A DNA stretch of 64,000 nucleotides from an uncultured cyanobacterium (GCA_963706595.1 OY970166.1:4416001-4480000); one strand, 5' to 3'; shown: positions 1 to 18,382, counted from the first letter of the stretch. Made by a program: numbers and translations. The notes: a model not told the origin generated them from the sequence alone.

Positions 1-728
1 TAGAAAAGGAACTGCGGTTTGAGGGGGTTTGGTTTCGCTATGGGGAGAAGACGGACTGGGTGCTGCGGGATTTTAACCTGAGTATGGCGGCGAAGACGAC
101 AGTGGGGTTTGTGGGCAGTACAGGCAGTGGTAAGAGTACAACAGCAGATTTGATTTTGGGGCTATTGCAACCCCAGAAAGGGTCTATTTGGGTGGATGGG
201 TTGCCTTTGGAGGGTGAGCGGTTGCGCCAATGGCAGCAGAGTATTGCCCATGTGCCGCAGCAGATTTTTCTAAGTGATGGGACGATGGCGGAGAATATTG
301 CTTTTGGTATTTCTCAGGAGCAGATTGATTTTGAGCAGGTACGAAAGGCGGCGAGGTTAGCTCAGATTGAGGAATTTATTGAAGGTTTGCCTGCCCAGTA
401 TGATACCTATGTAGGGGAGAGAGGGATTCGCCTGAGTGGGGGTCAGCGGCAACGGATTGGCATTGCGCGGGCGTTGTATCGCAATGCGTCGGTGATTGTG
501 TTTGATGAGGCGACGAGTGCGTTGGATAATGCCACGGAGCGAGAGGTGATGGCGGCGATTGAGGGGTTGAGTCGTCAGTTTACGATTATTTTGATTGCCC
601 ATCGGTTGAGTACGGTGGAGCAGTGTGATTTGGTTGTGGAGTTGAGTCAAGGGCAGGTGGTGTCTCAGGGAAGTTATCAGGAGTTAATAGAAAAATCTTC
701 GAGCTTTCAGCAGATGACAACAGGGTGA
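1..728 (+). CDS. ABC transporter ATP-binding/permease (exporter), 5'-truncated by the window edge
   Basis: Frame is open from base 3 (EKELRFEGVWFRY...). Walker A GSTGSGKS, signature LSGGQRQR, Walker B IVFDEATSALD, IAHRL motif. Confidence 0.9.
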   Translation, partial: EKELRFEGVWFRYGEKTDWVLRDFNLSMAAKTTVGFVGSTGSGKSTTADLILGLLQPQKGSIWVDGLPLEGERLRQWQQSIAHVPQQIFLSDGTMAENIAFGISQEQIDFEQVRKAARLAQIEEFIEGLPAQYDTYVGERGIRLSGGQRQRIGIARALYRNASVIVFDEATSALDNATEREVMAAIEGLSRQFTIILIAHRLSTVEQCDLVVELSQGQVVSQGSYQELIEKSSSFQQMTTG

Positions 729-898
729 ATACAAAATATTGTTCTCCAAAAAATTATATAGCGGATTATTTTTGAATGGAAACTCAAATTAAATTTGAAA
801 TATTGCCCCAATTTTCTGGATTCGATTATTTGATAGCCGTCATCAATAAACAAGATGGAACAACTCAAGAAAATTGAAAACCAAGTCGCTAATTTTTT

Positions 899-1852
899 GT
901 GAAAAAGGGTTTTATTGATAATTTTGCAAAGAATGAAGTGGTACTAATCAGAACAAAAATGTATTTATCCGATTCGGAGCGGCTTCTACGCCAAGGCGTA
1001 TCTCTGATTCCATACACGACCTGGAAAATAGGAGGTACTGCCCGATGGTTGGCAGAACCAACCCTTGATGAAACACCTGAGTTGCTCGCTTGGGCATACG
1101 CACAGGCAATTCCCGTCTACTTTCTCGGTCGCGGCTCAAATGTATTGATTGATGATGCTGGACTACCTGGGTTGGTGATATTAACTCGTAACTCTCTCAA
1201 TGAGTTGCGACGTGATGGAGACCAGATTATAGCCGGAAGTGGCGTATTTTTGCCTCACTTATCCCAATTCGCAGCACGCGAGGGCTTTTCAGGCTTCGAG
1301 TTTCTCGTTGGCATTCCTGGCACAGTAGGCGGCGCTGTAGCGATGAATGCTGGGTTGACGGTTTTTTGTCCCCGTGAGATGACAGCAATTGTTCAAGATT
1401 TTGATGTCTTAAATCTAGATGGCAGCATTGAAACACTAACTATGGAAGACGTTCATGCGGGTTATCGCCATACTGATTTGTTTGATGGAAAGCGCCTGAT
1501 TCTGCAAGCTCGTTTTCGCTTAGAAGAAGAGGGCAATCCAGAGGATATCAGGCGCAACACTTTTGCTCATCTTGCCGAACGTAAGCGTAAGCAACCACTA
1601 GATAAGCCTACTGTCGGAAGCACTTTTAAGTCACCTCCAGGGAGTAAGGGTGCCGGATGGTATATCGAACAAGCGGGTCTTAAAGGCTTTCAAATTGGTG
1701 ATGCGCGGGTAAGTCCCATGCACGCAAATTGGATTGAAAATTTGGGTGGTGCAACTGCGAGAGATATACGTCAATTAATTGCACACATTCAAAGCACTGT
1801 TAGAGACCAAATGGAAATTCATCTAGAACCTGAAGTTGTTTTTCTGAGCTAA
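899..1852 (+). CDS. murB: UDP-N-acetylenolpyruvylglucosamine reductase (MurB-like paralogue); start may be ATG 959
   Basis: TTWKIGG, LGRGSNVLIDD, GIPGTVGGAVAMNAG, KQPL...GSTFK, HANWIEN, LEPEV motifs. Confidence 0.85.
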   Translation: MKKGFIDNFAKNEVVLIRTKMYLSDSERLLRQGVSLIPYTTWKIGGTARWLAEPTLDETPELLAWAYAQAIPVYFLGRGSNVLIDDAGLPGLVILTRNSLNELRRDGDQIIAGSGVFLPHLSQFAAREGFSGFEFLVGIPGTVGGAVAMNAGLTVFCPREMTAIVQDFDVLNLDGSIETLTMEDVHAGYRHTDLFDGKRLILQARFRLEEEGNPEDIRRNTFAHLAERKRKQPLDKPTVGSTFKSPPGSKGAGWYIEQAGLKGFQIGDARVSPMHANWIENLGGATARDIRQLIAHIQSTVRDQMEIHLEPEVVFLS

Positions 1853-2509
1853 CTAAACTTATCTTAAACAGCTATGTCTACCTTATTCAGCGCTGCTACT
1901 AAGCAACCTTCTTTATCAATGAATGTATGCGGCTCTCAGGTTCGATCTGAAAAAGTTCCGGTGAGCAGGGCTAAAAATGCCGCTACGGACAATAATTATA
2001 TGATTCAATTTCTCAGTTGTTGTTTTCTTGAATATACATTAGATTCCTCTCAAGCCTTCTGTCAAGCCTAATTGAGATGCTCTTACCCTGCCCGTAATTA
2101 GGGTTTAAGAGATTTTTTATTTGGAGTGCTTTAAATCTTTAATTTTCTAGTTCTCACGAAGAGACACATTATTTTGAATGTTTATCTAATGTAGAAATAT
2201 TAAGGATATATCAAGAATTATCGAATAAGCCTGTTTCTTCTAAAAGCATGATTGCAATTTCAGTAGGAGTAAACAAATAGTAGCAAACTAAATAATTTTG
2301 ACTCTTCCGTACCTGTTATGCTAAATACACATCTAAATAAGGTTAAAACCCTTGTTGGAAAATAATAACAGGCTTTATTATTAACGTTTGAGTCTTGGCG
2401 CTTAAATGGAGGATATAACCGCCTGTAAGCCTTGATTTTCAATGGAAATTCTAGAGTTTAATTAAAATTAAAGCATAACACATACCGAAGAACCACAATT
2501 TTAATAACT

Positions 2510-3037
2510 ATGGATTCCTCAAACTATTCTATTCTACAATTAATATCTGACATTAAATCAGATATTAAGCTAAAATCATCTTCTTTTAAAGGCGCTATTT
2601 TCTATTTTTTATTCTCGCCACAAATAAAGGTCTTATTTTATTATCGTCTTTCGCACTGGCTATATAAAAATGGCTTTGGGGGGATGTCTTATATCGTGAG
2701 TTCTTGGCAGAGTAGATACGGCTGTTACATATCCCGAAAATGTGTTGTTGGGCAACGTGTTAGATTACTTCATCCTGTAGGTATTGTTATTGGTGATGGT
2801 GTTATTATTGAAGACGATGTATCTATTTGGCAGAATTGTACTTTAGGCAGTCATGGCAAACCAAGCATACCCAAAGCGTATCCATACGTTGAAAAAGGTG
2901 TGAAGATTTACGGTGGCTCTGTTTTGATAGGAGATATCAGAATTGGAAAAAACTCTATAATTGGAGCTAATAGCGTTATTTTATCAAATGTTCCTGAAAA
3001 TTCAGTGGCTGTTGGAGTTCCCTACAAGAGAATTTAA
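2510..3037 (+). CDS. Hexapeptide-repeat (CysE-like) O-acetyltransferase
   Basis: HPVGIVIG, left-handed beta-helix repeats, IGANSVIL, VAVGVP; polysaccharide cluster context. Confidence 0.8.
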   Translation: MDSSNYSILQLISDIKSDIKLKSSSFKGAIFYFLFSPQIKVLFYYRLSHWLYKNGFGGMSYIVSSWQSRYGCYISRKCVVGQRVRLLHPVGIVIGDGVIIEDDVSIWQNCTLGSHGKPSIPKAYPYVEKGVKIYGGSVLIGDIRIGKNSIIGANSVILSNVPENSVAVGVPYKRI

Positions 3038-3136
3038 AATCAGGTTTTTTAAAATCAAATTTCCTGAAAAAATGTGACTTTAACCAATATCTTTGCCTAA
3101 ATAACTTTCAAGCCAAAAGTTTATTTCATATTAAAA

Positions 3137-4414
3137 ATGATAGAAAACTTCAATAAGCTCATTATTCATCCTTCCCGCTTAGTAGGAGAAGTAAGGGTTA
3201 GCGGGGCAAAAAATTCGGCTCTTCGCCTCTTGGCTGCTTCTTTACTAACACCCTATCCTGTTCGTCTTAAGAACTACCCAAGCACATTGCTTGATGCTCG
3301 TCTCCATGTTGAGATGCTTGAAGCACTTGGTAAAAACTGTAGATTAATTAGTAAGAGTGAAATAGAAATCCTAGAGGTTAACTCTCCTCCACCAGAGCTA
3401 GTGTGGGAAAAACGATCAATTCGCAACACTTTGCTAATTTTAGGTGCTTTAGTCAGTCGTACAGGTAGAGGTAAGGTGCCATTACCTGGAGGCTGTAAGC
3501 TGGGCGATCGTAAGTATGATATTCATGTGATGGTGCTTGAATCCCTGGGCGCTCATGTCTGGGAAGAGGGAGACTATCTTTGTGCCGAAGTTCCTAGCCA
3601 TCAAAAGCTCAAGGGGGCAGAAATCTTTCTGCCTATTCGCTCAACTGGAGCCACTGAAAACAGTATTATCTGCGCTTGTTTAGCTGAAGGTACAACCCGT
3701 ATTTGGGGACCACATATTCGTCCAGAAATTCATGATCTGATTAAATTTCTTTGTTCCCTTGGAGCTAAAATAGAAGTCTGTGGACAAGAAAGTATTATTG
3801 TTCAAGGAGTCCATGAATTGGGCAGTACCACCCATGAAGTAATTGCCGACAATGTTGAAGCACTCACTTGGCTAATTGGTTCTGCTGTCACCAATGGAGA
3901 TGTAGAAATTCTAGATTTTCCGTTTGAACACTTAGAAGTTCCTCTCATTCACCTGCGAGAAAGTGGCGTTCGTTTTTATCGGTTAGAAAACCGCCTTATT
4001 GTTCGAGGTTCTAGCTGTTACCCCATTGATATCAGCACAGGCCCTTATCCGGGAATTAATTCTGATATGCAACCGCTTTTTGCTATTTTAGGAGCAATGG
4101 CTAAAGGCGAAAGCCGTATCATTGACCTCAGATTTCCTGGACGCTACGCTTATGCAGAGGAACTCGCTAAAATGGGAGTGACTTATGAGGTCAAGGATAA
4201 TCTTTTAGTGATTCAGGGAGGCCATAGACTTCAGGGAACTGAAGTAATAGCCCTTGACTTAAGAGCTGGTGCAGCCCTGATGATTGCAGGTTTCATAGCA
4301 GATACTCCAACCACTATTACCAATGCATGGCAAATTTTTAGAGGTTATGATCAGCTAAATAAAAAGTTATCTCAGCTTGGTGTTAGTGTCTTCAGTGAAA
4401 TGCAAGTATTTTAA
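3137..4414 (+). CDS. murA: UDP-sugar enolpyruvyl transferase (divergent MurA paralogue)
   Basis: VSGAKNSAL, LPGGCKLGDR (catalytic Cys loop), STGATEN, PYPG..SDMQ, DLRAGAAL, RGY motifs. Confidence 0.85.
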   Translation: MIENFNKLIIHPSRLVGEVRVSGAKNSALRLLAASLLTPYPVRLKNYPSTLLDARLHVEMLEALGKNCRLISKSEIEILEVNSPPPELVWEKRSIRNTLLILGALVSRTGRGKVPLPGGCKLGDRKYDIHVMVLESLGAHVWEEGDYLCAEVPSHQKLKGAEIFLPIRSTGATENSIICACLAEGTTRIWGPHIRPEIHDLIKFLCSLGAKIEVCGQESIIVQGVHELGSTTHEVIADNVEALTWLIGSAVTNGDVEILDFPFEHLEVPLIHLRESGVRFYRLENRLIVRGSSCYPIDISTGPYPGINSDMQPLFAILGAMAKGESRIIDLRFPGRYAYAEELAKMGVTYEVKDNLLVIQGGHRLQGTEVIALDLRAGAALMIAGFIADTPTTITNAWQIFRGYDQLNKKLSQLGVSVFSEMQVF

Positions 4415-4553
4415 AAACGAGTTTTTAGCAAGCAAGTATGAACTAAGTTAATGAAATTGAAAACTTTAATTGCTTCCAACCAGGGTTAAATTGGATTAGA
4501 AAACTTATCTAATTAGAGGGTGTTTGCGTATCTATTCTAGGTGAAATATAGAA

Positions 4554-5573
4554 GTGATTCATACTACTACTAAAGAAATTTTAGATAAACCACTTGTTTC
4601 TATTGTTTCGTGCTTTTACAATCGGGCAAATTATGTCAAGCGTTCTGTTGATAGTCTACTAAAGCAGACATATTCAAACATTGAGATTCTTCTAGTAGAC
4701 GATGGCTCAACAGACAACACGTTAGATGAACTGGTCTCTTATAAAGATCCACGAATTCGCCTGATAAGACATGAAAACAAGGGACTTGTACGTGCTTTAC
4801 GTGCTGCAATTGCATCATCTCAAGGGGAATTAATTGCAATTCATGGCTCCGGAGATATTTCTTTACCTCAGCGAATAGAGATGCAAGTTGGCTTGCTGAT
4901 AAAAAATTCTGATATTGGGGTTGTCGGCTGCTATATGCGCGATTTCAATATAGTGAAAAATAATTGGGACAACATATGCAGAACTATAGAAGAGGATCAG
5001 CTATCTCAATTAATTACAGAAAATCCCTTTTCTCACGGAGAAGTGATGTTTAGGCGAAGCTGTTATGAACAAGTGGGCGGCTATCGTGAATTTTTTGAGT
5101 TTTCCCAGGATCGGGATCTTTGGTTAAGAATGGCTCCAGTAACTCGTTTTGCTGTTGTTCCAGAAATCTTATATGAAAGGGACGCAGTTGAAGGTTCTGT
5201 AACTAAAGTTCCCTCAAAGGCTAGAAAGCAAGCTCATTTATCAGAATTTGCGATCGCTTGCGCTATTACCAGAAGGGATCAAGGATTTGATCCACTGGAT
5301 AGAGATGGTCCTGAAGCTTTTAAACGTCTAGCTAACACCAGTTCGAGATTACAAATTCGACTGAGATACTTAGTATCTCGCTACTTGGCAGATCACCAGT
5401 TTGATGCCGCTCAGGAATTAATGTCAGAAGTGGTTTCTCTAAATGCTTCGGCTTTTAATAGATTGACTCTGACAGCCATAACATTGGCTCAAAAAATTCC
5501 AGTTTTCCGCAAACCGCTGCAACTGATATTTCAATGGCGCTTAAGGCTCATTAGTTTCCAAAAAAGCAGTTGA
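4554..5573 (+). CDS. Glycosyltransferase family 2
   Basis: VSIV..YN, VDDGSTD, QDRDLWLR. Confidence 0.85.
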   Translation: MIHTTTKEILDKPLVSIVSCFYNRANYVKRSVDSLLKQTYSNIEILLVDDGSTDNTLDELVSYKDPRIRLIRHENKGLVRALRAAIASSQGELIAIHGSGDISLPQRIEMQVGLLIKNSDIGVVGCYMRDFNIVKNNWDNICRTIEEDQLSQLITENPFSHGEVMFRRSCYEQVGGYREFFEFSQDRDLWLRMAPVTRFAVVPEILYERDAVEGSVTKVPSKARKQAHLSEFAIACAITRRDQGFDPLDRDGPEAFKRLANTSSRLQIRLRYLVSRYLADHQFDAAQELMSEVVSLNASAFNRLTLTAITLAQKIPVFRKPLQLIFQWRLRLISFQKSS

Positions 5574-5675
5574 GAAGAGGTGCGATCGCATTAGCAAATA
5601 CTCAGCTAATCTTGCTTAAATCTGAGGAAGTACAATTAATTAAGTCCATTTTAAAACTAAGAGGAAATACAAAGA

Positions 5676-6593
5676 ATGGAGCCATTGGTTAGTGTAGTGA
5701 TGTCTGTTTTTAATGGCGAAAAGTATGTAACTGATGCTATTGATAGTGTTATTAATCAAACTTATAAAAACTGGGAATTAATTATTATTGATGATGGCTC
5801 AACAGACAGCACAGCATCTCTTATAAAAAACTATCAGGATCGGCGAATACAATATATCTTTCATAAAAATATGGGGCTAACTAAATCCTTAAATAAAGGT
5901 ATTAAACTGTCTAGAGGCGAGTATATAGCACGGATAGATTCAGATGATCGCGCTTTTCCAGAAAGGTTTGAGAAACAGGTAGAGTATTTTGTAAGAAATC
6001 CAGAAGTAGTATTAATAGGTTCATCATACTATAAATTCGATGCTTCTACTAGAATGTCTTCTATTTTCACTCCTCCTCTAGATGATTTGGGCTGTAGAAA
6101 ATTATTAAAACTTGGTCATAGTCTATTCCATCACAGCTCAGTAATGTTTAAGAAACAAGTTGCTGGTGAGATGGTTCTCTATGATGAAAACTATAGGGAA
6201 GCTCAAGATGTTAGACTCTGGATCACCTTGTTAGGTAAAGGGAAAGCGGCTGCATTGTCAGAAACTCTTTGCTGCATTCTTAGTTCCCATTCTGGGAGTA
6301 TATCATCTAATCGATCTCCATTAGAGAGTGCAAAGTTTCAGTGGCACTTTTCTAGAATTGCGCGTCATGAATTAGATGGGAATTTCTATGACTTGCTTCT
6401 AAGTTTTAAAAGTATTTTAAAAGGGCTATTACTTAACTCTTTGAAGGTTTTATTTGTATATACCAAATTTGTATATACTGCGCTATACTTGTATCTATTC
6501 TCTTTATACTGTGCCTCAAAAGGGAGGAAAGGCAACCAGGTAGATTCAATGATTGTTGAGATATGGCAGCGTAATTATTTGAAAAAAATTTAG
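5676..6593 (+). CDS. Glycosyltransferase family 2
   Basis: VSVVMSVFN, IDDGSTD, RIDSDD. Confidence 0.9.
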   Translation: MEPLVSVVMSVFNGEKYVTDAIDSVINQTYKNWELIIIDDGSTDSTASLIKNYQDRRIQYIFHKNMGLTKSLNKGIKLSRGEYIARIDSDDRAFPERFEKQVEYFVRNPEVVLIGSSYYKFDASTRMSSIFTPPLDDLGCRKLLKLGHSLFHHSSVMFKKQVAGEMVLYDENYREAQDVRLWITLLGKGKAAALSETLCCILSSHSGSISSNRSPLESAKFQWHFSRIARHELDGNFYDLLLSFKSILKGLLLNSLKVLFVYTKFVYTALYLYLFSLYCASKGRKGNQVDSMIVEIWQRNYLKKI

Positions 6594-6614
6594 CAAGAAT
6601 AGGCTAATGTTAAA

Positions 6615-7919
6615 ATGAATTTAAAGTTAAGCAAATTGGCTTCTGATTGGTTTTTAATCGTGTTACTGTTTCTTTACATTTATTCTCCAGATTTTTCATT
6701 TGTAGGATTTAATAACTCAGGAATAGTTCTATTTCCACTAGCTATTTTTGGTTATGCTTTCTTTCTGAAGCCCAGATATATAATATCTTTCCTTACAAGA
6801 AACAAGGTAATTGTCGTATTTCAATTTTTGATATTATTTTTAGTGTTGCTTAGTACTATACTGCAAGTTTTTCAAAACTCAGCTAATAATGTTTCACTTG
6901 CAAGCCAATATCCTATATCTCTGGTTAGATTTTATTTTGAGGTAATAGTTGCATCTGTTGCTCTACATTGTCTATTCGCTGTGAGAAAAAAAGAGCAAAT
7001 AAATGATCTAATTAATGCTTTTTTTTGGATAATTTCTATTCAATTTGCAATTACTTTGCTTTCACTAATTAGTCCCTCGCTCAGAGACTACATAAACTTC
7101 TCTATTCTCAATCCAAACTCAAAGCTTATACAAGCTGACTGGCTATATCAGAGACGCGGATATGGACTTGCGTCAGGGCATTTATTTTTTTATCCCTTAT
7201 TCAATGGATTTATTCTATCAATAGCACTATGGGGTTCTGTTTCCAGCTTTAAAAAGAAAATAAATTATTTGGTTTATGCCTTAATGGCACTATTTCCAAT
7301 TTTCCTTAATGCACGAGTGGGTCTTATTTCAATTCCATCGTTCATTGTTTCATTACTTTTAATTAAACCTTTTAACCTGCGCTATACGCTGGGATTGGCA
7401 CTAACTACTATTTCCACAGGAACTCTATCCATATTATTATTCTCTTTTTTAGTTCAGCTTGATATTTTTGGTTCAAGTACACTTAGATGGATTTACGAGG
7501 GTATTTTACAATACCAAGCATTCTTTTCTGGTCAATGGCAAGATGTAACAATACTCAATGCACTTTTGGATGGTCATGTTCACTTTCCAACGAATCTTTT
7601 AATTGGAGATGGGAAGTATTTATTTCAAAACGAATCTATTTCCTTTAACAGTGATATTGGCTATATTAACTACTTATATTTTGGAGGTTTATTGTATTCT
7701 ATATTACTTTACGCTCCTTTTGTTTGGATATTCTGGAAAGCCATACTTAAAACAGACAATATAGCTCTTCGAGGCATTCTTTTAAGTGGATTAATTATAA
7801 TTTTTATTGCTAATTTTAAGGGGATTATTTTTCAAAGTAATTCTTTAACGCGAGCTTGTTTCCTTATGATAATATTTATACTTTTTGAGAAATCTAAAAA
7901 TATCAAAATATTTCTCTAA
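6615..7919 (+). CDS. Polytopic membrane protein, Wzy-like polysaccharide polymerase
   Basis: About 10-12 hydrophobic segments, AT-rich, SDIGY..LYFGG motif, flanked by glycosyltransferases. Confidence 0.65.
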   Translation: MNLKLSKLASDWFLIVLLFLYIYSPDFSFVGFNNSGIVLFPLAIFGYAFFLKPRYIISFLTRNKVIVVFQFLILFLVLLSTILQVFQNSANNVSLASQYPISLVRFYFEVIVASVALHCLFAVRKKEQINDLINAFFWIISIQFAITLLSLISPSLRDYINFSILNPNSKLIQADWLYQRRGYGLASGHLFFYPLFNGFILSIALWGSVSSFKKKINYLVYALMALFPIFLNARVGLISIPSFIVSLLLIKPFNLRYTLGLALTTISTGTLSILLFSFLVQLDIFGSSTLRWIYEGILQYQAFFSGQWQDVTILNALLDGHVHFPTNLLIGDGKYLFQNESISFNSDIGYINYLYFGGLLYSILLYAPFVWIFWKAILKTDNIALRGILLSGLIIIFIANFKGIIFQSNSLTRACFLMIIFILFEKSKNIKIFL

Positions 7920-8006
7920 ATAGCCTTGCCTAAAATAAAATTTTCATGGTATGTTGATTTACACAACCAATTAAGCAAGCACAAAAATCTTCACAGAAAA
8001 AATTAA

Positions 8007-8777
8007 ATGCTTCCTACTTATGTTGATATTGTCACAATTGCGAGAAATTCAGATAGTGTAATATTGAAAACTTTAGAGAGTGTTAGTTCTCAGACATATG
8101 AATATATAAATCATATTATTGTTGATGGGGAATCAACAGATAAAACCTTACAAGTTATTCAAAATTTTTCTCATAAAAAAAAGATAGCTATTCACTCGCA
8201 AGCACCTTTGGGTATTTCCAATGCTTTTAACACAGGGTTAAGCAAATCATGCGGTGAGTTAGTTATTTTTTTGAATTCAGGGGATAGATTGGTTAGTAAC
8301 AATATTGTTCAGCAGATTCTTGATTCTTATCAAGCTAAAAATTGGCTATGGGCTGTTGGTGAAACAATATCAGTTAGCCGCAGAGGATATTTGAAAAGGC
8401 ACGTCAGACAGCATAGCAAGTGGGAACAGAAATTGTTTTGGTATCGGAACCCTGTATGTCATCAGTCTACTATTTTCTCTCACAAGCTTATAGAACAAGT
8501 AGGCTTATACAATGAACAGCTTTCTTTAGAAATGGATTATGATTTTAACATCAGATGCTCATTAGTGGCTGATCCATTCCTGTTATATTTGCCAATATCA
8601 TACTATGATACGTGCGGTGTATCCTCTAGACGAGTATTCCAAAGCTATTTCATGCAATCAGAGATACGTAAGAAATACTTTCCATTGAGCATAACTCGTA
8701 ACTTAATAATTGAAAGTGTAGGTTTTTTAAAAGCAATCCAGCGTCTTTTCATGATACCCATTAAGCTTTTTTTGTGA
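8007..8777 (+). CDS. Glycosyltransferase family 2 (WfgS/WcaE-like)
   Basis: IVDGESTD, FLNSGD, CHQS, MDYD motifs. Confidence 0.85.
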   Translation: MLPTYVDIVTIARNSDSVILKTLESVSSQTYEYINHIIVDGESTDKTLQVIQNFSHKKKIAIHSQAPLGISNAFNTGLSKSCGELVIFLNSGDRLVSNNIVQQILDSYQAKNWLWAVGETISVSRRGYLKRHVRQHSKWEQKLFWYRNPVCHQSTIFSHKLIEQVGLYNEQLSLEMDYDFNIRCSLVADPFLLYLPISYYDTCGVSSRRVFQSYFMQSEIRKKYFPLSITRNLIIESVGFLKAIQRLFMIPIKLFL

Positions 8778-8952
8778 TGGAGGTTTCTTTAAAACAAAAA
8801 TATTAAACATAAAAAAATAGAGTCAACCATTATCCAATCATCATTTGCATGAACTAGCTATTTGTGTAAAAATCATGTTTGTGAGAAAATGTCAATACCA
8901 AAAACAGATTTCGTGAGATGAATAAAAGTCTACGCAACTTATAACGTTATAC

Positions 8953-10017
8953 ATGATTCCTAATACGATCTCCCCTAAATTAACATTAGCAATACCAACT
9001 TATAACGAAGCAGCGAATATAGAGCAGGTAGTGAAAGGATTCCTTTCAACAAAATATACCAATTTAATAGAGGTATTCGTTGCTGATGGTGGTAGTACAG
9101 ATGGAACCCAAGATGTTGTTAGAAACTTAGCCTTGGAAGATTCTAGAGTTAAACTTTTACATAACCCCTTAAAAGTTCAATCAGCTGGACTAAATCTCAT
9201 ATTAGAGGAATCTAATGGCGATATTTTCCTGAGAGCGGATGCTCATTCAGACTATGCACCTGAGTATATTGAAAAGTGTGTCGAAGCATTATTATCGTCT
9301 CAAGCTCTCAATGTTGGTGGGGCGCAGCGTTTTGTTGGTAGAACAGCTTTTCAAGCCAGTGTAGCTTTAGCTTCTAAAAGTGTTTTGGGTAGTGGAGGAG
9401 CCAAATATAGGAACCCTGAGTATGATGGCTATGCTGATACAGTCTATATGGGATGTTTTTGGAGACAGACATTACTGGATATCGGCGGGTTTGATGTATC
9501 AAATCACCCTAATGAAGATGCTGAATTAAATCAAAAATTACTTAATATTAATCCAAAAGCAATTTATATAAGTTCTAAAATTCGCGTCTGGTACTATCCC
9601 AGAAAAACATGGAAATCTCTTTGGATTCAATATTTTAAATACGGTCATGGTCGCTACTTAACAACTACCAAACACTCAATTAAGTCCCAAGTGAGGGGTA
9701 TGACACCATTTCTTGTCTTATCCATATTAGTTATTTTTGTTTTGATTGGTTTGTTGTTTCCTCAACTACGGCTACCTATTGAAATATTAATTTTAGTCTG
9801 TGTGTTTTTACCCTTTCTAGAAAGCTGGCGAATAGCCCTAAAGTTTAGCAAAAACTTTGAAGAAGAAATTTGGCGGGGGGATAAAAATAAAATCCCCTCA
9901 TTCCTGAGTCGCTGGTTTGCTTGTGGAGTCGTTTTACTAACTATGCCAATCGCTCATTCTTGTGGTTATGGCTATCAGTTAGTCAGACATAGGGTTTTTA
10001 GAGTTAGTGGTTGCTAG
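8953..10017 (+). CDS. Glycosyltransferase family 2 (ExoA-like) with C-terminal TM helices
   Basis: IPTYNE, ADGGSTDGT, RADAH, NEDAELN, QYFKYG. Confidence 0.85.
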   Translation: MIPNTISPKLTLAIPTYNEAANIEQVVKGFLSTKYTNLIEVFVADGGSTDGTQDVVRNLALEDSRVKLLHNPLKVQSAGLNLILEESNGDIFLRADAHSDYAPEYIEKCVEALLSSQALNVGGAQRFVGRTAFQASVALASKSVLGSGGAKYRNPEYDGYADTVYMGCFWRQTLLDIGGFDVSNHPNEDAELNQKLLNINPKAIYISSKIRVWYYPRKTWKSLWIQYFKYGHGRYLTTTKHSIKSQVRGMTPFLVLSILVIFVLIGLLFPQLRLPIEILILVCVFLPFLESWRIALKFSKNFEEEIWRGDKNKIPSFLSRWFACGVVLLTMPIAHSCGYGYQLVRHRVFRVSGC

Positions 10018-10029
10018 AAAACAGCGACA

Positions 10030-10596
10030 TTACTCTAATTTGGGGTTAAAACGAGCGCCGGTTCTATCCGTGAAAATCCACAATATTGAGCGCCCACTAT
10101 CTCGCAAGACTCGCACGAGAGATTCTGAATCGTCCCCCGATGATGGTACAGAAACAGGTGTAACTACAATCCCCTGGCTGCCTAAAACAACAGTAGCTAT
10201 AACCATTGACCGCCGCATATGATAATCTGAAGTAATCAAGTAAATATGCTGTAAATTCCTATCTGCAAATTCTTGTACCAATGTTGTAAAATTTGTCACT
10301 GTATCAGTTGCTCTACCATCTAAATGCAACTTTTCATCGGGAACACCAGACTGCAAAAATATCCGCCGATTAGCATCTAAATTCCAAGCAAAATCAGAAA
10401 CCCAAATATCTAAATTTCTGTGAGATTGCCAAAACTCTGCCGCAAACTTCATCCGCGCGGAATCACCCCCCAAGACAAAAATAGCCTGTGGTACTGGTGC
10501 TTGATAGAAAGCGATCGCAATTCTCACCGGAATAATACTCACCACCACTAAGGCGATCGCTAAAACCCACCTGATTAATTTTAGTTTAGATTTCAT
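10030..10596 (-). CDS. YdcF/DUF218 family protein
   Basis: N-terminal TM, VLGG, ATDTVTNF, LITSDYHMRRS. Confidence 0.85.
   Translation of the reverse strand: MKSKLKLIRWVLAIALVVVSIIPVRIAIAFYQAPVPQAIFVLGGDSARMKFAAEFWQSHRNLDIWVSDFAWNLDANRRIFLQSGVPDEKLHLDGRATDTVTNFTTLVQEFADRNLQHIYLITSDYHMRRSMVIATVVLGSQGIVVTPVSVPSSGDDSESLVRVLRDSGRSILWIFTDRTGARFNPKLE
10511..10560. repeat. HIP1 octamers (GCGATCGC); representative pair of many in the window
   Basis: Copies at 10511 and 10553; others at e.g. 5250, 5582, 28453, 41253. Confidence 0.9.
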
Positions 10597-10640
10597 AGCA
10601 TATAAATTTTATATCATATTTTAACTCTTAATTTTTAACA

Positions 10641-12221
10641 ATGTACACAACAAATCAACCCGATCCAGTTCGCTTAGAAATCTTCAAAAACCTGTATCAA
10701 TTTATCGCAGAACAAATGGGGATTATTCTCCAGAACACAGCAGCATCGGTAAACATCAAAGAACGCCTCGATTTCTCCTGCGCTATTTTTGACACTTCGG
10801 GGTTATTAGTAGCCAACGCTCCCCATATTCCTGTACATTTAGGCTCAATGAGTGAAAGTGTCCGCAGCTTAATTAACGATAAAGGCGACACCATTCAACC
10901 CGGAAATGTTTACCTATCTAATAATCCCTACAACGGAGGAACTCACCTTCCCGATGTTACAGCTATTACCCCTGTTTTCCTCGAATATAATACTTCATCC
11001 CCTACTCCCCACTCACCATTCGCCACTCCCCTGTTTTACGTTGCTTCTCGTGGACACCAAGCCGATATCGGTGGAATTACACCCGGTTCCATGCCTCCCC
11101 ACAGCACCACAGTAGACGAAGAAGGCATTTTATTTGATAACTTCCTCTTAGTTAAACAAGGAAAATTCCAAGAAACTTCAGTAAGAGAAATCCTCGCAAA
11201 TCATCCCTATCCGGCGCGTAACCCTGACCAAAATATAGCTGATTTCAAAGCTCAAATTGCTGCCAATGAAAGAGGAGTGCAAGAACTCCGAAAAATGGTT
11301 GCTCAATACGGCATTGAAACAGTGCAGTCTTACATGAATTTTGTGCAAGACAATGCGGAAGAAGCAGTAAGACGAGCCATAAATCTGCTCAAAGATGGCT
11401 CTTTTAGTTATGCAATGGATAATGGGGCAGAAATTAAAGTTACAGTCACAATTGACAAAGAAAACCGCAGTGCAATAATTGATTTTACTGGCACATCTCC
11501 ACAAATAAATAGTAACTTTAATGCTCCCAAAGCTGTAACTCAAGCCGCAGTTTTATATGTCTTCCGCACTTTAGTTGATGATAATATTCCCCTCAATGCT
11601 GGGTGTCTTAAACCTCTAGAAATCATTATTCCCGTTGGCTGTATGCTTAACCCCACATATCCCGCCGCAGTGGTAGCCGGTAACGTGGAAACCTCCCAAA
11701 CCATTGTCGATGCTTTATATGGTGCATTGGGTGTCATGGCTGGTTCTCAGGGAACTATGAATAATTTTACCTTTGGAAATCAGCGTTATCAATATTATGA
11801 AACCATCTGCGGTGGTTCTGGCGCAGGAGCTTATTTTGATGGTACTGATGCAGTGCATACCCACATGACTAACTCCCGATTAACTGACCCCGAAGTTTTA
11901 GAAACCCGTTATCCTGTATTAGTAGAAAGCTTTAGTCTGCGTCCTGATAGCGGCGGTAAAGGTAAACATTCCGGTGGTGATGGTGTAATTCGCCGCATTC
12001 GGTTTTTAGAACCCATGACAGCCAATATTCTCTCTAGCCATCGCTTAGTTCCTCCCTTTGCATTAAATGGAGGGGAACCAGGAGAAGTAGGACGCAACTG
12101 GATAGAACGTCAAGACGGAACCCAGGAGAATTTAGACAGTACCGCCACCGTAGAAATGCAGCCAGGGGATGTTTTTGTGATTGAAACCCCTGGGGGAGGA
12201 GGGTTTGGATGTGTTGCTTAG
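10641..12221 (+). CDS. Hydantoinase B/5-oxoprolinase subunit
   Basis: NIKERLDFSCA, HIPVHLGSM, GGTHLPD, ETPGGGG. Confidence 0.9.
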   Translation: MYTTNQPDPVRLEIFKNLYQFIAEQMGIILQNTAASVNIKERLDFSCAIFDTSGLLVANAPHIPVHLGSMSESVRSLINDKGDTIQPGNVYLSNNPYNGGTHLPDVTAITPVFLEYNTSSPTPHSPFATPLFYVASRGHQADIGGITPGSMPPHSTTVDEEGILFDNFLLVKQGKFQETSVREILANHPYPARNPDQNIADFKAQIAANERGVQELRKMVAQYGIETVQSYMNFVQDNAEEAVRRAINLLKDGSFSYAMDNGAEIKVTVTIDKENRSAIIDFTGTSPQINSNFNAPKAVTQAAVLYVFRTLVDDNIPLNAGCLKPLEIIIPVGCMLNPTYPAAVVAGNVETSQTIVDALYGALGVMAGSQGTMNNFTFGNQRYQYYETICGGSGAGAYFDGTDAVHTHMTNSRLTDPEVLETRYPVLVESFSLRPDSGGKGKHSGGDGVIRRIRFLEPMTANILSSHRLVPPFALNGGEPGEVGRNWIERQDGTQENLDSTATVEMQPGDVFVIETPGGGGFGCVA

Positions 12222-12244: not shown

Positions 12245-12835
12245 TTAATTAACCACTTGGCTTCCATGACTACGGGGATCATCTTGATTGTTGGCGGGTG
12301 TAACGGGAGCGCGAAATTGGGAAACTTGTCCGCTAGTTTTAGCATAGGGTAAGGAGGAACCAGCCACCAACGCGTCTAAGTTACTAGCCATGACTGTATG
12401 GGGTTGGTCGCCGATGGTTTGGGCGATGCTTTCCCCATCTTTAGCTAAAAATACAAAGTGAGGAATCCCATCTACTCGATATTTCAGCATTTCGGGTAGC
12501 CATTTGGTGTTGTCTACGTTCAACATCACAAAGTTTACTTTGTCCGCATACTGCTGTTCGAGTTCGGCGATATCAGGAGCCATTTTTTGGCAGACTGTAC
12601 ACCAGTTAGCGTAAAACTCGACTATTGAGGGTTTACCGTTGCTAATGGCTATTTCTAGGGGTGTGGATGTTTGATCTAAGTCGGCTAAAGAGGTGGAATT
12701 TGTTTCTGTTCTCAATCCTAAGACTAAAGCTACACTCAGAGCGATCGCCACTATAGCAATTAAGAAGTTTCTCACCCTCCTCCCAGTTGTGGTTTCAGGC
12801 TTAGGGGTAGAATTGATAGGGGTTTCTGTAGTCAT
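12245..12835 (-). CDS. txlA: Thiol:disulfide interchange protein TxlA-like
   Basis: TM anchor plus thioredoxin domain with WCTVC. Confidence 0.8.
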   Translation of the reverse strand: MTTETPINSTPKPETTTGRRVRNFLIAIVAIALSVALVLGLRTETNSTSLADLDQTSTPLEIAISNGKPSIVEFYANWCTVCQKMAPDIAELEQQYADKVNFVMLNVDNTKWLPEMLKYRVDGIPHFVFLAKDGESIAQTIGDQPHTVMASNLDALVAGSSLPYAKTSGQVSQFRAPVTPANNQDDPRSHGSQVVN

Positions 12836-12949
12836 AGGAAATTTATTAAAACTTATTAAGTATTGTCACTCTTTAGTTTAACGTTTTCTGCTTCTGCGGC
12901 TTTTGCAAGTCACACTAAGCTAGAACAGAAACTACTCTCTGCTAAAGCT

Positions 12950-13354
12950 GTGAAAAAACGAGTTACCCTGACTTTTCCCAAACGTGCGATTCAAATGCCG
13001 GTGACTTACCTACTGGCAAAGGAATTTAACGTGGCTGCAAATATTATCCGCGCCCAAGTTGCACCAAATCAAATTGGTAAACTGGTGGTAGAATTATCAG
13101 GAGATATTGATCGGTTAAATGAAGCTATTGAGTGGATGCGATCGCGTCATATCAATGTTTCCCATAACTTAGGTGAAATTGTCATTGATGAAGATGTCTG
13201 TGTCCACTGTGGTTTGTGTACTGGGGTTTGTCCGACAGAAGCCCTGACTTTGCACCCAGAAACATTCAAATTGACATTCACGCGATCGCGCTGTATTGTC
13301 TGTGAGCAATGTATTCCTACTTGTCCAGTACAAGCAATTTCCACGAATCTCTAA
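12950..13354 (+). CDS. NIL-domain / 2x[4Fe-4S] ferredoxin
   Basis: Likely GTG start at 12950 (MKKRVTLTF). NIL domain; CVHCGLCTGVCP and CIVCEQCIPTCP. Confidence 0.85.
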   Translation: MKKRVTLTFPKRAIQMPVTYLLAKEFNVAANIIRAQVAPNQIGKLVVELSGDIDRLNEAIEWMRSRHINVSHNLGEIVIDEDVCVHCGLCTGVCPTEALTLHPETFKLTFTRSRCIVCEQCIPTCPVQAISTNL

Positions 13355-13355
13355 T

Positions 13356-14126
13356 TTAGAAGAATAGTTTAAATCGTCCTAACTGAGTTTCAATAGCTCC
13401 AGTGATCATTTTATTCAGTTCTGTACTATCTTGAAATTGCAAAATTTGTTGTGTGGGCAAATCAAAGGGAAATTCACCCTCAAAGTCTGGGTGTTGCATC
13501 TGTGCTAACAAAATTTGTTCAGCCCGCTTACTTTGCATAGCATAGCCAATCTCCACACAGACATTGGGACTAGGAATTAATTGATTATTTTCTTTCCCAG
13601 AAATGCTCGCAATGGGTGTAGTATCAGCGATAAACAACAAACTCCTGCGGATTCTTCTCATAATAGCATGGCTGAGTCTGATGGGAGCATGACTAGGGCG
13701 GTAAGCTTCTACTAATGTTAAAGGCAGACGCGATCGCTTGTTCAAAGACTCTAAACTTTTTTGTAGTTCCTCTCTTAAGGCATCACTTGCTGGTACATAC
13801 TCAGTTTGGGAACATAAAAAAATCGTTGGTTCTAACTGAGCTAATAATGCTTGTTTGGTGAAATAAATTTCATGACTAATTAAGTCAATGTTAGCTACAC
13901 AATAGCCGCCACTACCTTCAATATAAAATTCAATATTTTCGCCTTCTAAATAACGCCCAAACCAAGTTGATTGTCTAACATGGTCAATATCTTCCAGAAA
14001 GTCCGCTCTTAATGCTGATTTCAGCAGACTTTTTTTACTGAGGCGAATGTCTGGCGGACGTTTTTCCAGTTCTGCAATCGGCTCATAATCTTGAATGTAC
14101 CAGGCTCTGAGCGCAATAATTGACAT
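13356..14126 (-). CDS. Conserved hypothetical protein with C-terminal TIR/NDT-like motif
   Basis: 256-aa ORF; FIADTTP...SPNVCVEIGYA. Confidence 0.6.
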   Translation of the reverse strand: MSIIALRAWYIQDYEPIAELEKRPPDIRLSKKSLLKSALRADFLEDIDHVRQSTWFGRYLEGENIEFYIEGSGGYCVANIDLISHEIYFTKQALLAQLEPTIFLCSQTEYVPASDALREELQKSLESLNKRSRLPLTLVEAYRPSHAPIRLSHAIMRRIRRSLLFIADTTPIASISGKENNQLIPSPNVCVEIGYAMQSKRAEQILLAQMQHPDFEGEFPFDLPTQQILQFQDSTELNKMITGAIETQLGRFKLFF

Positions 14127-17544: not shown

Positions 17545-17869
17545 TGCTGGTACATTTAAAATGATACATTGAATTGGAAAAAATCTTTGTCAATAATTGC
17601 CAGTAGCAGTCGTCATTTTTACGGCTCTAAAGTTAAGAAAAGGTTATTATTAATAACTTAATCTTATATCTTCGATATCAAAATGTATATAGTAAAATTA
17701 TGCAGTGGAAAAAATTTCAACAGATTATTGATAATCATTATCAAATTTCATGAAAGTTAACATTAGTAGATATTAGTTAAGTAATTTCACTTACGAACTT
17801 TCCTAAAAATTTTTAATCTGGGAGAATGTTGTCATTCCCCAGCCACAGCCAATATTTAATTACTTCTAA

Positions 17870-18382
17870 TTAATCTAACTTACTTTCTCTAGAAATTACC
17901 GTGAAAACTCGCGATTGGAGAATTTCTGCACGTACACCCATGAGAATTTTGCCAAGATGATTTTGACCAGTTTTTTCAGCCCCACAGCCCCAAAAATAAT
18001 CATTTGGCGAATTTTCCACCAGCGTCTCATTACCAGTGGCGATCAGAATTTCTTTAATCTCCAGATGAGTGAGAAACTTTTTGAATACAGCTTCTCGCAT
18101 AACTTTAGTTTTGACCATTTCCCAGTCTGGACGAAGTTGGCGAGTCCGGCAACGCCCCAAAGCCGCAGCTGCTTCTGGGGTTTCGGCGGACTGGATAACG
18201 GGTATAATTCCGGCATCGACACTACCGACAAACTTTTGCGCTTGATAATAATGTTCCACGGTTGGCCAATAAGTATCCTGAATTTGGATGCCGTGGCCAG
18301 AAAAGTTAGAAAAACAGCCATAAGGCTGCCAAACCTTGTAAAAGTATATAGTCATTTGAAAATTGCTCTTTATATATATCAA
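17870..18382 (-). CDS. NADAR (YbiA-like) N-glycosidase
   Basis: FSNFS, WPTVEHYYQAQKF, DYFWG, GQNHLGKILM. Confidence 0.9.
   Translation of the reverse strand: MIYIKSNFQMTIYFYKVWQPYGCFSNFSGHGIQIQDTYWPTVEHYYQAQKFVGSVDAGIIPVIQSAETPEAAAALGRCRTRQLRPDWEMVKTKVMREAVFKKFLTHLEIKEILIATGNETLVENSPNDYFWGCGAEKTGQNHLGKILMGVRAEILQSRVFTVISRESKLD

Follow-up and report, generated by a model that had tools for sequence, protein, structure and literature searches.

A second MurA/MurB pair in a cyanobacterial polysaccharide island is a candidate pathway for lactyl-ether sugars

A stretch of 64,000 nucleotides from an uncultured cyanobacterium (GCA_963706595.1, OY970166.1:4416001-4480000; G000:C1:4416001-4480000 in our numbering), here called the window, carries a gene for a MurB-like flavin reductase (899..1852, + strand) and a gene for a MurA-like enolpyruvyl transferase (3137..4414, + strand) within a polysaccharide island. 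Both are second copies, paralogues of a murA and a murB that lie elsewhere in the same genome, which is 5.57 Mb long and assembled as one contig. Together with a hexapeptide-repeat acetyltransferase and a family 2 glycosyltransferase (GT2a) they most likely form a transferable four-gene module (899-5573). Judged from sequence comparison, this module most likely makes, transfers and acetylates a sugar bearing a 1-carboxyethyl (lactyl) ether for the exopolysaccharide (EPS) of the island, and we put the probability that its reaction departs from the housekeeping one in sugar, position or stereochemistry at about 0.55. An earlier note on this DNA had proposed that the pair lactylates a uridine diphosphate (UDP)-sugar other than UDP-N-acetylglucosamine (UDP-GlcNAc), and had pointed to the nosturonic acid of Nostoc as a precedent.

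The MurB-like protein contains the FAD_binding_4 and MurB_C domains (PF01565, 65.1 bits; PF02873, 113.2 bits), and an alternative ATG at 959 would give a product of 297 aa. The MurA-like protein matches EPSP_synthase over its full length (PF00275, 225.9 bits, profile positions 4-417 of 417). Its score on the murA equivalog model TIGR01072, 361.1 bits, falls short of the 392.7 required, and that on the subfamily model NF006873 exceeds the cut-off (377.1 vs 297 bits); 32 MurA sequences from the PDB match it at E <= 1e-40, the best at 4.4e-74. Searching the entire genome with profiles, we found a housekeeping murA at 1239029-1240279 (554.7-556 bits) and, immediately downstream of murC (437 bits), a housekeeping murB at 5383971-5384834 (301 bits). 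Because these separate genes exist, the pair in the window are paralogues and not the genome's only murA and murB, a possibility that the earlier note had raised. The MurA-like protein is 37% identical to the housekeeping MurA (155/419) and the MurB-like protein 39% identical to the housekeeping MurB (119/308). The MurA-like protein also matches all 162 columns that are conserved at >=95% among 80 relatives; we are therefore not dealing with chance open reading frames (ORFs).

Relatives of the MurA-like protein were collected from the contigs of one genome per species, covering 185,579 prokaryote species. A relative was encoded by 293 stretches, and all counts of loci given below refer to the best 80 of these. 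The 80 are 58-87% identical to the MurA-like protein and span Cyanobacteriota (nine loci), Bacteroidota, Verrucomicrobiota, Kiritimatiellota, Pseudomonadota, Spirochaetota, Deinococcota, Thermodesulfobacteriota, Bdellovibrionota and one Methanosarcina metagenome-assembled genome (MAG), so that the group extends across at least nine phyla. All nine cyanobacterial loci ranked top, and Anabaenopsis came closest to the pair in the window (87% and 80-82% identity). In a collection of 5.8 billion proteins, the 120 best relatives were 62-93% identical, and every named one was called UDP-N-acetylglucosamine 1-carboxyvinyltransferase; at E <= 1e-120, a search seeded with a Bacteroidales member returned at least 2,407 protein clusters. 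No match to the MurA-like protein at E <= 1e-100 was detected in 400 other sampled cyanobacterial genomes, among them 45 of the same family and two of the same genus (0/45 and 0/2). In a tree of 89 rows, rooted on AroA and obtained by a quick search with Shimodaira-Hasegawa approximate likelihood-ratio (SH-aLRT) supports and no bootstrap, 81 MurA-like paralogues formed one clade (SH-aLRT 99) and seven housekeeping MurAs from the same genomes another (98).

This accessory clade is conserved to an unusual degree. Pairwise identity within it is 54-98%, with a median of 63%, and only 28-39% between the clade and housekeeping MurAs, while housekeeping MurAs of different phyla share 31-36%. Among plasmid records, identities jump from 58.8% to 37.2%, with none between. 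That the clade is more conserved over nine phyla than the essential MurA itself points to recent horizontal spread under tight constraint. When ten other carrier genomes were searched, nine also had a housekeeping murA above the cut-off, and all five tested for murB carry two copies. The tenth carrier, a Methanosarcina barkeri MAG, has the paralogue only and no housekeeping murA. Its contig (L078, 6224-14043) encodes a sugar dehydrogenase, an epimerase, the MurA-like enzyme, MurB and a Wzx-type flippase; either the module moved into an archaeon or the contig was mis-binned. Alkalispirochaeta alkalica (G005) has tandem housekeeping-type murA matches of 490 and 416 bits (C19:14959-16248 and 16879-17913). 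The second begins at profile position 79, and the shared part is identical in the tree; this tandem may be a duplication or an assembly repeat.

In order to compare active sites, we mapped E. coli numbering through an alignment to P. aeruginosa MurA and through the contact lists in Table 1 of PMC13750019 (in excerpt). The MurA-like protein keeps E. coli Lys22, Asn23, Arg91, Cys115, Arg120, Asp123 and Ser162 (its own Lys25, Asn26, Arg96, Cys120, Arg125, Asp128 and Ser169) as well as Gly164, Asp305, Arg331, Asp369, Arg371 and Arg397 (its own Gly171, Asp310, Arg336, Asp374, Arg376 and Arg402). We take Lys22, Cys115, Arg120, Asp305, Arg331, Asp369, Arg371 and Arg397 to be the catalytic and phosphoenolpyruvate (PEP)-binding set of E. 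coli MurA. This set is conserved across the accessory clade, and the cysteine that is the target of fosfomycin is kept by all of its members. The motifs to which the earlier note had drawn attention, IRNTLLILG, GINSDMQ (with Asp310), DLRFPGR and the cysteine loop LPGGCKLG (with Cys120), were recovered in alignments to the genome's own MurA and to that of P. aeruginosa, and the clade signature WGPHIRPE, YPGINSDMQ and DLRFPGRY is present in the MurA-like protein.

Other positions differ. For the 11 UDP-GlcNAc contacts of 1UAE (Table 1 of PMC13750019, in excerpt), seven residues are identical (Asn23, Arg91, Arg120, Asp123, Ser162, Gly164 and Asp305) and four are changed, namely Leu124 to Ile, Lys160 to Ile, Val163 to Thr and Val327 to Arg (clade-invariant); Lys160 is likewise missing from the genome's own housekeeping MurA. 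In addition, the 81 paralogues are fixed (>=95%) at 14 positions for residues that depart from a consensus drawn from six housekeeping sequences. These include the changes Ala92 to Asn, Val163 to Thr, Ala-Ala-x-Glu188 to Pro-His-x-Arg, Glu325 to Asp, Glu329 to Pro and, beside the catalytic Asp, Phe302-Pro303 to Ile-Asn. The clade changes cost two conserved glutamates and add two arginines. A UDP-sugar other than UDP-GlcNAc, as the earlier note had put forward, may be hinted at by these four contacts and 14 clade-specific positions. We also considered Glu188 and Glu329 as ligand contacts and set them aside as a weak hint: they come from one docked, molecular dynamics-refined S. aureus model (PMC13750019, in excerpt) and do not appear in the crystal contact lists.

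Arg190, Ser241 and Glu312 are conserved in the MurB-like protein and in 69 of 69 partner MurBs, a count that leaves out the mis-extracted, long-branch row of locus L031. These residues align with the YR, GS-FK and E-EV motifs of Listeria MurB (3TX1) and of 4PYT, and the active-site triad of MurB is presumably Arg, Ser and Glu. Since the catalytic residues and most of the UDP-contact residues are kept, both enzymes look active and the acceptor of the MurA-like enzyme is probably a UDP-sugar.

The two genes are tightly linked. In 71 of the 80 loci, a MurB homologue (>=200 aa aligned) shares the strand of the MurA-like gene, at a distance of up to 3.5 kb in 70 loci and of up to 300 bp in 26; if any MurB hit is accepted, the count is 72. 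In the window, the MurB-like gene ends 1.3 kb upstream of the MurA-like gene. Three of the nine loci with no MurB lie at contig ends (L035, L043 and L070). Anabaenopsis elenkinii (G001) has an intact MurB upstream and, directly after the MurA-like gene, two short MurB-like fragments (C1:2852482-2852837; profile 1-96 and 95-120), which look like the remnant of a second MurB copy.

Two further genes accompany the pair. The acetyltransferase of the window (2510..3037, + strand) is of the CysE/EpsC/WcaB-like, hexapeptide-repeat kind; its best match, EpsC/CysE-like, scored 126.6 bits, under the cut-off of 150. Relatives with >=35% identity occur in 37 of the 80 loci, and in 28 the distance to the MurA-like gene is no more than 300 bp. 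GT2a (4554..5573, + strand), the candidate lactyl-sugar transferase, was assigned by profile match and is co-conserved with the pair, relatives (>=35% identity over >=240 aa) being found in 20 of the 80 loci and always within 4 kb of the MurA-like gene. The four-gene module recurs, and a minimal form of it occurs on a plasmid of the alphaproteobacterium Qingshengfaniella: genes for a hexapeptide transferase, the MurA-like enzyme, MurB and a GT2 are found there by themselves, flanked by proline-catabolism and sugar-acid genes. The GT2 of this plasmid module is 38% identical to GT2a over 271 aa, and its acetyltransferase is 36% identical to that of the window.

For a wider view of the neighbourhoods we annotated 109 ORFs from 11 loci (out of 136 ORFs in 12 loci, leaving out L075 and the shortest ORFs). 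In all 11, Wzx-type flippases, Wzy_C proteins, glycosyltransferases of families GT1, GT2 or GT4, sulfotransferases, a pyruvyl transferase or sugar-nucleotide enzymes lie beside the pair. In one locus, that of Winogradskyella pelagia, two genes for 23S rRNA-intervening sequence proteins (PF05635; L017:4275-4631 and 8294-8677) stand amid the sugar-nucleotide genes upstream of the module. The order in the other cyanobacterial loci is an ATP-binding cassette (ABC) gene, the acetyltransferase where there is one, MurB, MurA and GT2a, with MurB abutting MurA. The acetyltransferase is thus upstream of MurB in those loci, whereas in the window it lies between the MurB-like and MurA-like genes, behind an AT-rich gap of 657 bp (1853..2509, 33% GC) that holds no credible ORF and has no blastn or tblastx similarity to the nine other cyanobacterial loci. 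As its gene order differs from theirs, the module of the window has been rearranged. A look-up of RNA and DNA sequencing runs covering 899-5573 gave none.

We then compared the surroundings of the module with two genomes of the same genus by blastn and tblastn. The island is 18,690 bp long (G000:C1:4407947-4426636); its left end lies 8,054 bp upstream of the window, and its right-hand 10.6 kb occupy positions 1..10636. It sits between the hydantoinase A and B genes (HydA and HydB) and splits this gene pair. Homology to both same-genus genomes ends just past the HydA stop (L006:11946) and restarts at 10637-10641 of the window, and the island is absent from both (2/2). In one of them (G381) the HydA-HydB spacer is 64 bp. 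The other (G323) has 1.6 kb of unrelated cargo there (L107:16765-18347), with ORFs of 166 and 246 aa. The spacer is a variable spot, which holds 64 bp, 1.6 kb or the 18.7-kb island, and by this comparison of sequences the island is strain-specific and horizontally acquired. We had also considered a low GC content as evidence of transfer and dropped it, as per-gene GC is a mosaic (ABC 0.515, MurB-like 0.457, MurA-like 0.426 and Wzy-like 0.307) and the mean of the island is near that of its flanks.

The remainder of the island fits a polysaccharide locus, and Pfam and NCBIfam matches bear out the earlier description of the pair as lying amid an ABC exporter, an acetyltransferase, GT2s and a Wzy candidate. 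The 20 kb upstream of the window were annotated as well, and the part of the island there encodes GalE (469 bits vs a cut-off of 262), a polyprenyl glycosylphosphotransferase that would prime synthesis (TIGR03025, 390.1 bits vs 295.55), a Wzc-like chain-length/tyrosine-kinase protein (TIGR01007 autokinase domain, 179.9 vs 108.05) and the N-terminus of the ABC protein. The latter is a half-transporter of the MsbA/PglK/HepA type with 605 aa (L006:18911-20000 continued in 1..728, + strand), whose C-terminal ATPase part is in the window. It best matches the HepA (303.3 bits) and PglK (263.8 bits) families, both far under the equivalog cut-offs; its GC content is 51.5% vs about 41% for the genome, and it adjoins the pair in eight of the nine other cyanobacterial loci at 67-84% identity. 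No Polysacc_synt (Wzx) or Poly_export (Wza) gene was found within the island. Because a Wzx-type flippase is missing there and the ABC half-transporter is present instead, the latter may be the flippase or exporter for the repeat unit with the lactyl sugar.

Downstream of the module follow GT2b (5676..6593, + strand), a polytopic membrane protein of 434 aa with 9-10 hydrophobic segments (6615..7919, +), GT2c (8007..8777, +), GT2d (8953..10017, +) and, as the last gene within the island limits, a DUF218 protein recognised by profile match (10030..10596, - strand). The membrane protein is a candidate Wzy polymerase. It had no Pfam or NCBIfam match even at E = 1, and weak tblastn matches (23-26% identity) were found at the corresponding place in two Cyclobacterium loci. 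A priming phosphotransferase, glycosyltransferases (four GT2) and a polysaccharide co-polymerase (Wzc), by which Wzy-type assembly is recognised, are thus all present. The right flank, outside the module, is the hydantoinase/oxoprolinase B gene (10641..12221, + strand), identified by profile match and by the same-genus comparison. Beyond it, in the stretches 12245-14126 and 14785-17544 (- strand), we noted a 919-aa phytochrome-like histidine kinase with GAF and PHY domains, a thioredoxin-like protein, a NIL-domain 4Fe-4S ferredoxin and a 256-aa ORF that matches no family. No mur, fts or other cell-wall or division gene was found from 20 kb upstream of the window through position 17544, which agrees with what had been noted before.

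From these observations a pathway can be proposed. The MurA-like enzyme would use PEP to attach an enolpyruvyl group to a hydroxyl of a nucleotide sugar, which the kept residues suggest to be UDP-linked, and the MurB-like flavoenzyme would reduce the enol ether to the 1-carboxyethyl (lactyl) ether. GT2a would then add the lactyl sugar to the lipid-linked repeat unit, and the hexapeptide acetyltransferase would O-acetylate it. The rest of the island, comprising GalE, the priming phosphotransferase, the three other GT2s, the Wzy-like and Wzc-like proteins and the ABC half-transporter, would build and export an acidic EPS. The paralogy, the structure of the island and of the clade, the gene linkage and the conserved residues are observations; for the chemistry, the parts played by the GT2 and the acetyltransferase, and any change of substrate, we infer from them. 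As for the lactyl-ether reading of the earlier note, it is favoured by the paralogues, the polysaccharide cluster, the same pairing in many phyla and the intact catalytic machinery; the link to nosturonic acid is the part that found no support.

Several lines of evidence failed to back that link. No Nostoc was present among the best 80 loci, though nine cyanobacterial loci rank top; the paralogue occurred in none of the 400 sampled cyanobacterial genomes; and no sugar dehydrogenase was found in the island or in the nine other cyanobacterial loci. As a counterpoint, the genome has one UDP-glucose dehydrogenase elsewhere. Over all 80 loci, a dehydrogenase lies within 10 kb of the MurA-like gene in 27, and an epimerase of the short-chain dehydrogenase/reductase (SDR) type occurs in 41, in 27 of which it is within 300 bp upstream. 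These neighbouring sets are mixed in type: Psychrobacter has TviB/TviC-like members, Flammeovirga and a verrucomicrobial MAG have Ugd-like ones and Winogradskyella has Fcl, with GalE-like ones elsewhere. Neither the sugar dehydrogenase nor the SDR epimerase set was found in the nine other cyanobacterial loci, the island of the window or the plasmid module. A uronic-acid substrate deduced from neighbouring dehydrogenases was accordingly rejected, as such a heterogeneous and in these loci missing set gives no defining partner.

As the cyanobacterial loci and the plasmid module lack extra sugar-nucleotide genes and the island lacks both of these sets, the acceptor has to be a common metabolite. 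A single nucleotide-sugar dehydrogenase is encoded in the genome, of the UDP-glucose type and far from the island; UDP-glucuronic acid is thus available, and UDP-N-acetylhexosaminuronic acid, as far as gene content tells, probably is not. We give a GlcNAc-type sugar, leading to N-acetylmuramic acid (MurNAc) or an isomer, roughly two chances in five, a neutral hexose about three in ten, a uronic acid about one in five, and anything else, a different nucleotide included, about one in ten. Natural precedents are varied. Excerpts of three papers place MurNAc outside peptidoglycan, in the lipooligosaccharide (LOS) core of Psychrobacter arcticus (PMC4515632), 4-O-lactyl-mannose (Man4Lac) in the LOS of Odoribacter splanchnicus as well as the Cyanospira capsulata EPS (PMC12679510), and nosturonic acid in Nostoc commune and an EPS of Vibrio alginolyticus (PMC5983295); the excerpts name no genes for the lactyl sugars.

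The same chemistry might instead act on the same substrate. The pair would then be a dedicated source of UDP-MurNAc, in which GlcNAc carries a 3-O-(R)-lactyl ether, and GT2a would put MurNAc into the EPS. A number of results favour such a source or otherwise weigh against the account we prefer. The residues listed as touching the GlcNAc moiety, Asn23, Arg91 and Asp305 (own Asn26, Arg96 and Asp310), are all kept, so that UDP-GlcNAc is still a fully viable substrate; the UDP contacts Arg125, Asp128, Ser169 and Gly171 are kept as well, and the changed positions of the MurA-like enzyme may contact the nucleotide rather than the sugar. The MurB-like protein exceeds both MurB equivalog cut-offs (NF010480, 303.8 vs 259; TIGR00179, 223.1 vs 144.5), and the TIGR01072 cut-off does not divide the clade cleanly, the Flammeovirga paralogue reaching 393.7 bits. 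Six loci with full 10-kb flanks (L013, L016, L029, L036, L046 and L084) have no MurB nearby; in these, the housekeeping MurB may be borrowed or the enolpyruvyl ether left unreduced on the sugar. The partner MurBs make up three clades with good support (10, 21 and 38 members), separated by housekeeping sequences, so that the partner label needs four changes on the tree, and those of cyanobacteria, together with one Trueperaceae partner, sit beside the cyanobacterial housekeeping MurB with a support of 91. As the partner MurBs are the less uniform element, it is the MurA-like enzyme that seems to define specificity, and at least one replacement of the reductase may have taken place. As to acquisition, the mean GC of the island (0.392) is close to that of the flanks (0.41), and composition, giving no sign of foreign origin, is not usable alone as evidence of transfer.

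The MurNAc of the P. arcticus LOS core suits a UDP-MurNAc source, all the more as two Psychrobacter species carry the module (PMC4515632, in excerpt), and so does the lack of extra sugar-nucleotide genes in the cyanobacterial loci and the plasmid module, by which the substrate would be a common metabolite. However, a glycosyltransferase could already draw on the housekeeping UDP-MurNAc pool, and a second source would leave unexplained the deep clade with its 14 fixed differences, the new arginine at a contact site and a conservation across phyla far higher than that of housekeeping MurA. We therefore regard it as unlikely. A different nucleotide carrier, for instance GDP-mannose yielding 4-O-(1-carboxyethyl)mannose, would account for the clade changes Pro121 to Lys, Val122 to Tyr, Val163 to Thr and Val327 to Arg, positions that we take to lie at or beside the uridine/diphosphate part of the MurA site. 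It would also suit the occurrence of Man4Lac in a cyanobacterium and a member of the Bacteroidota (PMC12679510, in excerpt), the closest relatives of the pair being in Anabaenopsis. The UDP-site residues Arg125, Asp128, Ser169 and Gly171 are kept, however, which makes such a carrier improbable; no Odoribacter was seen among the named matches in the 120 best of the Bacteroidales-seeded search, where most matches are nameless and the result is thus uninformative. A back-up or condition-specific route to peptidoglycan precursors, comparable to MurAA/MurAB of Firmicutes and present in the island by chance, could be argued from the family membership of both proteins and from their full set of catalytic residues. 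It is very hard to reconcile with a pair that a search of 400 other sampled cyanobacterial genomes, two of them from the same genus, failed to detect, that is always tied to polysaccharide genes and stands with a GT2 and an acetyltransferase on a plasmid, and that has no mur, fts or other wall gene nearby; the Methanosarcina MAG, with the pair and no housekeeping murA, also argues against a murein role, subject to the caveat of MAG binning. We consider this route very improbable.

The preferred reading, a lactyl-ether pathway whose reaction differs from that of the housekeeping enzymes, can tentatively be carried further, at somewhat less than even odds. The accessory clade with MurB, GT2 and often the acetyltransferase could be a horizontally spreading cassette behind the scattered non-muramic lactyl ether sugars, such as 4-O-lactyl-mannose, glucolactilic acid and nosturonic acid, in which arginine in place of Val327 and of Glu188 would reshape the acceptor site so that it takes something else than UDP-GlcNAc, be it another sugar or another nucleotide. 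If so, one conserved enzyme would account for lactyl sugars in cyanobacterial EPS, Bacteroidota LOS and marine Proteobacteria. Such 1-carboxyethyl ethers charge polysaccharides and occur in glycans of commercial and immunological interest, including cyanobacterial EPS, a cosmetic EPS of Vibrio, the LOS of gut Bacteroidota and enterobacterial O-antigens. A discrete, highly conserved MurA clade with a fixed set of partners offers a testable candidate and a genomic marker for predicting lactylated glycans. The module is widespread and currently mis-annotated: genes of the clade are uniformly named as a peptidoglycan enzyme and given cell-division Gene Ontology terms, which inflates the copy number of murA.

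We searched the open literature and found no paper that links MurA/MurB paralogues of polysaccharide loci to lactyl sugars or characterises such a pair, and none that names or characterises enzymes for any lactyl ether sugar besides MurNAc. In Vibrio parahaemolyticus typing, 'murB' is listed as a K31-specific capsule gene (PMC8443796). The nearest systems by product are the O-antigen and N-glycan lactyl-ether loci, in which, as proposed here, a carboxyethyl ether sugar is encoded inside a surface-glycan locus. Work by Senchenkova in 2006 is said, by its title, to describe two 'glucolactilic acid' genes in Shigella boydii 17, and work by Knirel in 2017 reportedly concerns the glucolactilic-acid genes of E. 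coli O69/O146; both may bear on the novelty of the present proposal. A blastn search with the Psychrobacter member, set for distant matches, against every complete E. coli genome (20,395 records) gave no match, a method too insensitive at about 60% protein identity for this to mean absence. A 2026 preprint reports, in excerpt, a 234-Da sugar, proposed to be glucolactilic acid, in Campylobacter with a 'pyruvyl transferase' in the pgl operon that is likened to MurA (PMC13232197).

Ketal pyruvyltransferases (PF04230: CsaB, WcaK and Pvg1p) likewise place a PEP-derived three-carbon acid on polysaccharide sugars and lie in polysaccharide clusters, but they have an unrelated fold, give a cyclic pyruvate ketal and require no reductase (PMC6801904, in excerpt). 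One such PF04230 enzyme is encoded 4 kb from the pair in a Trueperaceae locus (L042). Firmicutes with MurAA and MurAB (MurZ) also have two MurA genes per genome. Both of these, however, act in peptidoglycan synthesis, and neither is known to be part of a polysaccharide locus that includes a MurB of its own. NikO of nikkomycin biosynthesis, which acts on UMP (PMC6801904, in excerpt), is also a MurA-family enzyme turned to a non-wall pathway and another acceptor, with the fosfomycin-target cysteine kept; it differs in that no MurB step follows and the product is an antibiotic, not a glycan. The 32 PDB matches at E <= 1e-40 did not include NikO; each bears the name UDP-N-acetylglucosamine 1-carboxyvinyl (enolpyruvyl) transferase. 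The housekeeping MurA (EC 2.5.1.7) and MurB (EC 1.3.1.98) share with the pair their folds, domains, catalytic and PEP residues and most UDP contacts, and carry out the same two steps, enolpyruvyl transfer followed by flavin-dependent reduction to a lactyl ether. In contrast to them, the copies in the window, at 37% and 39% identity, lie in a polysaccharide island and not beside murC, and the MurA-like enzyme belongs to a separate clade, falls under the TIGR01072 cut-off and has four of 11 contacts and 14 fixed positions changed.

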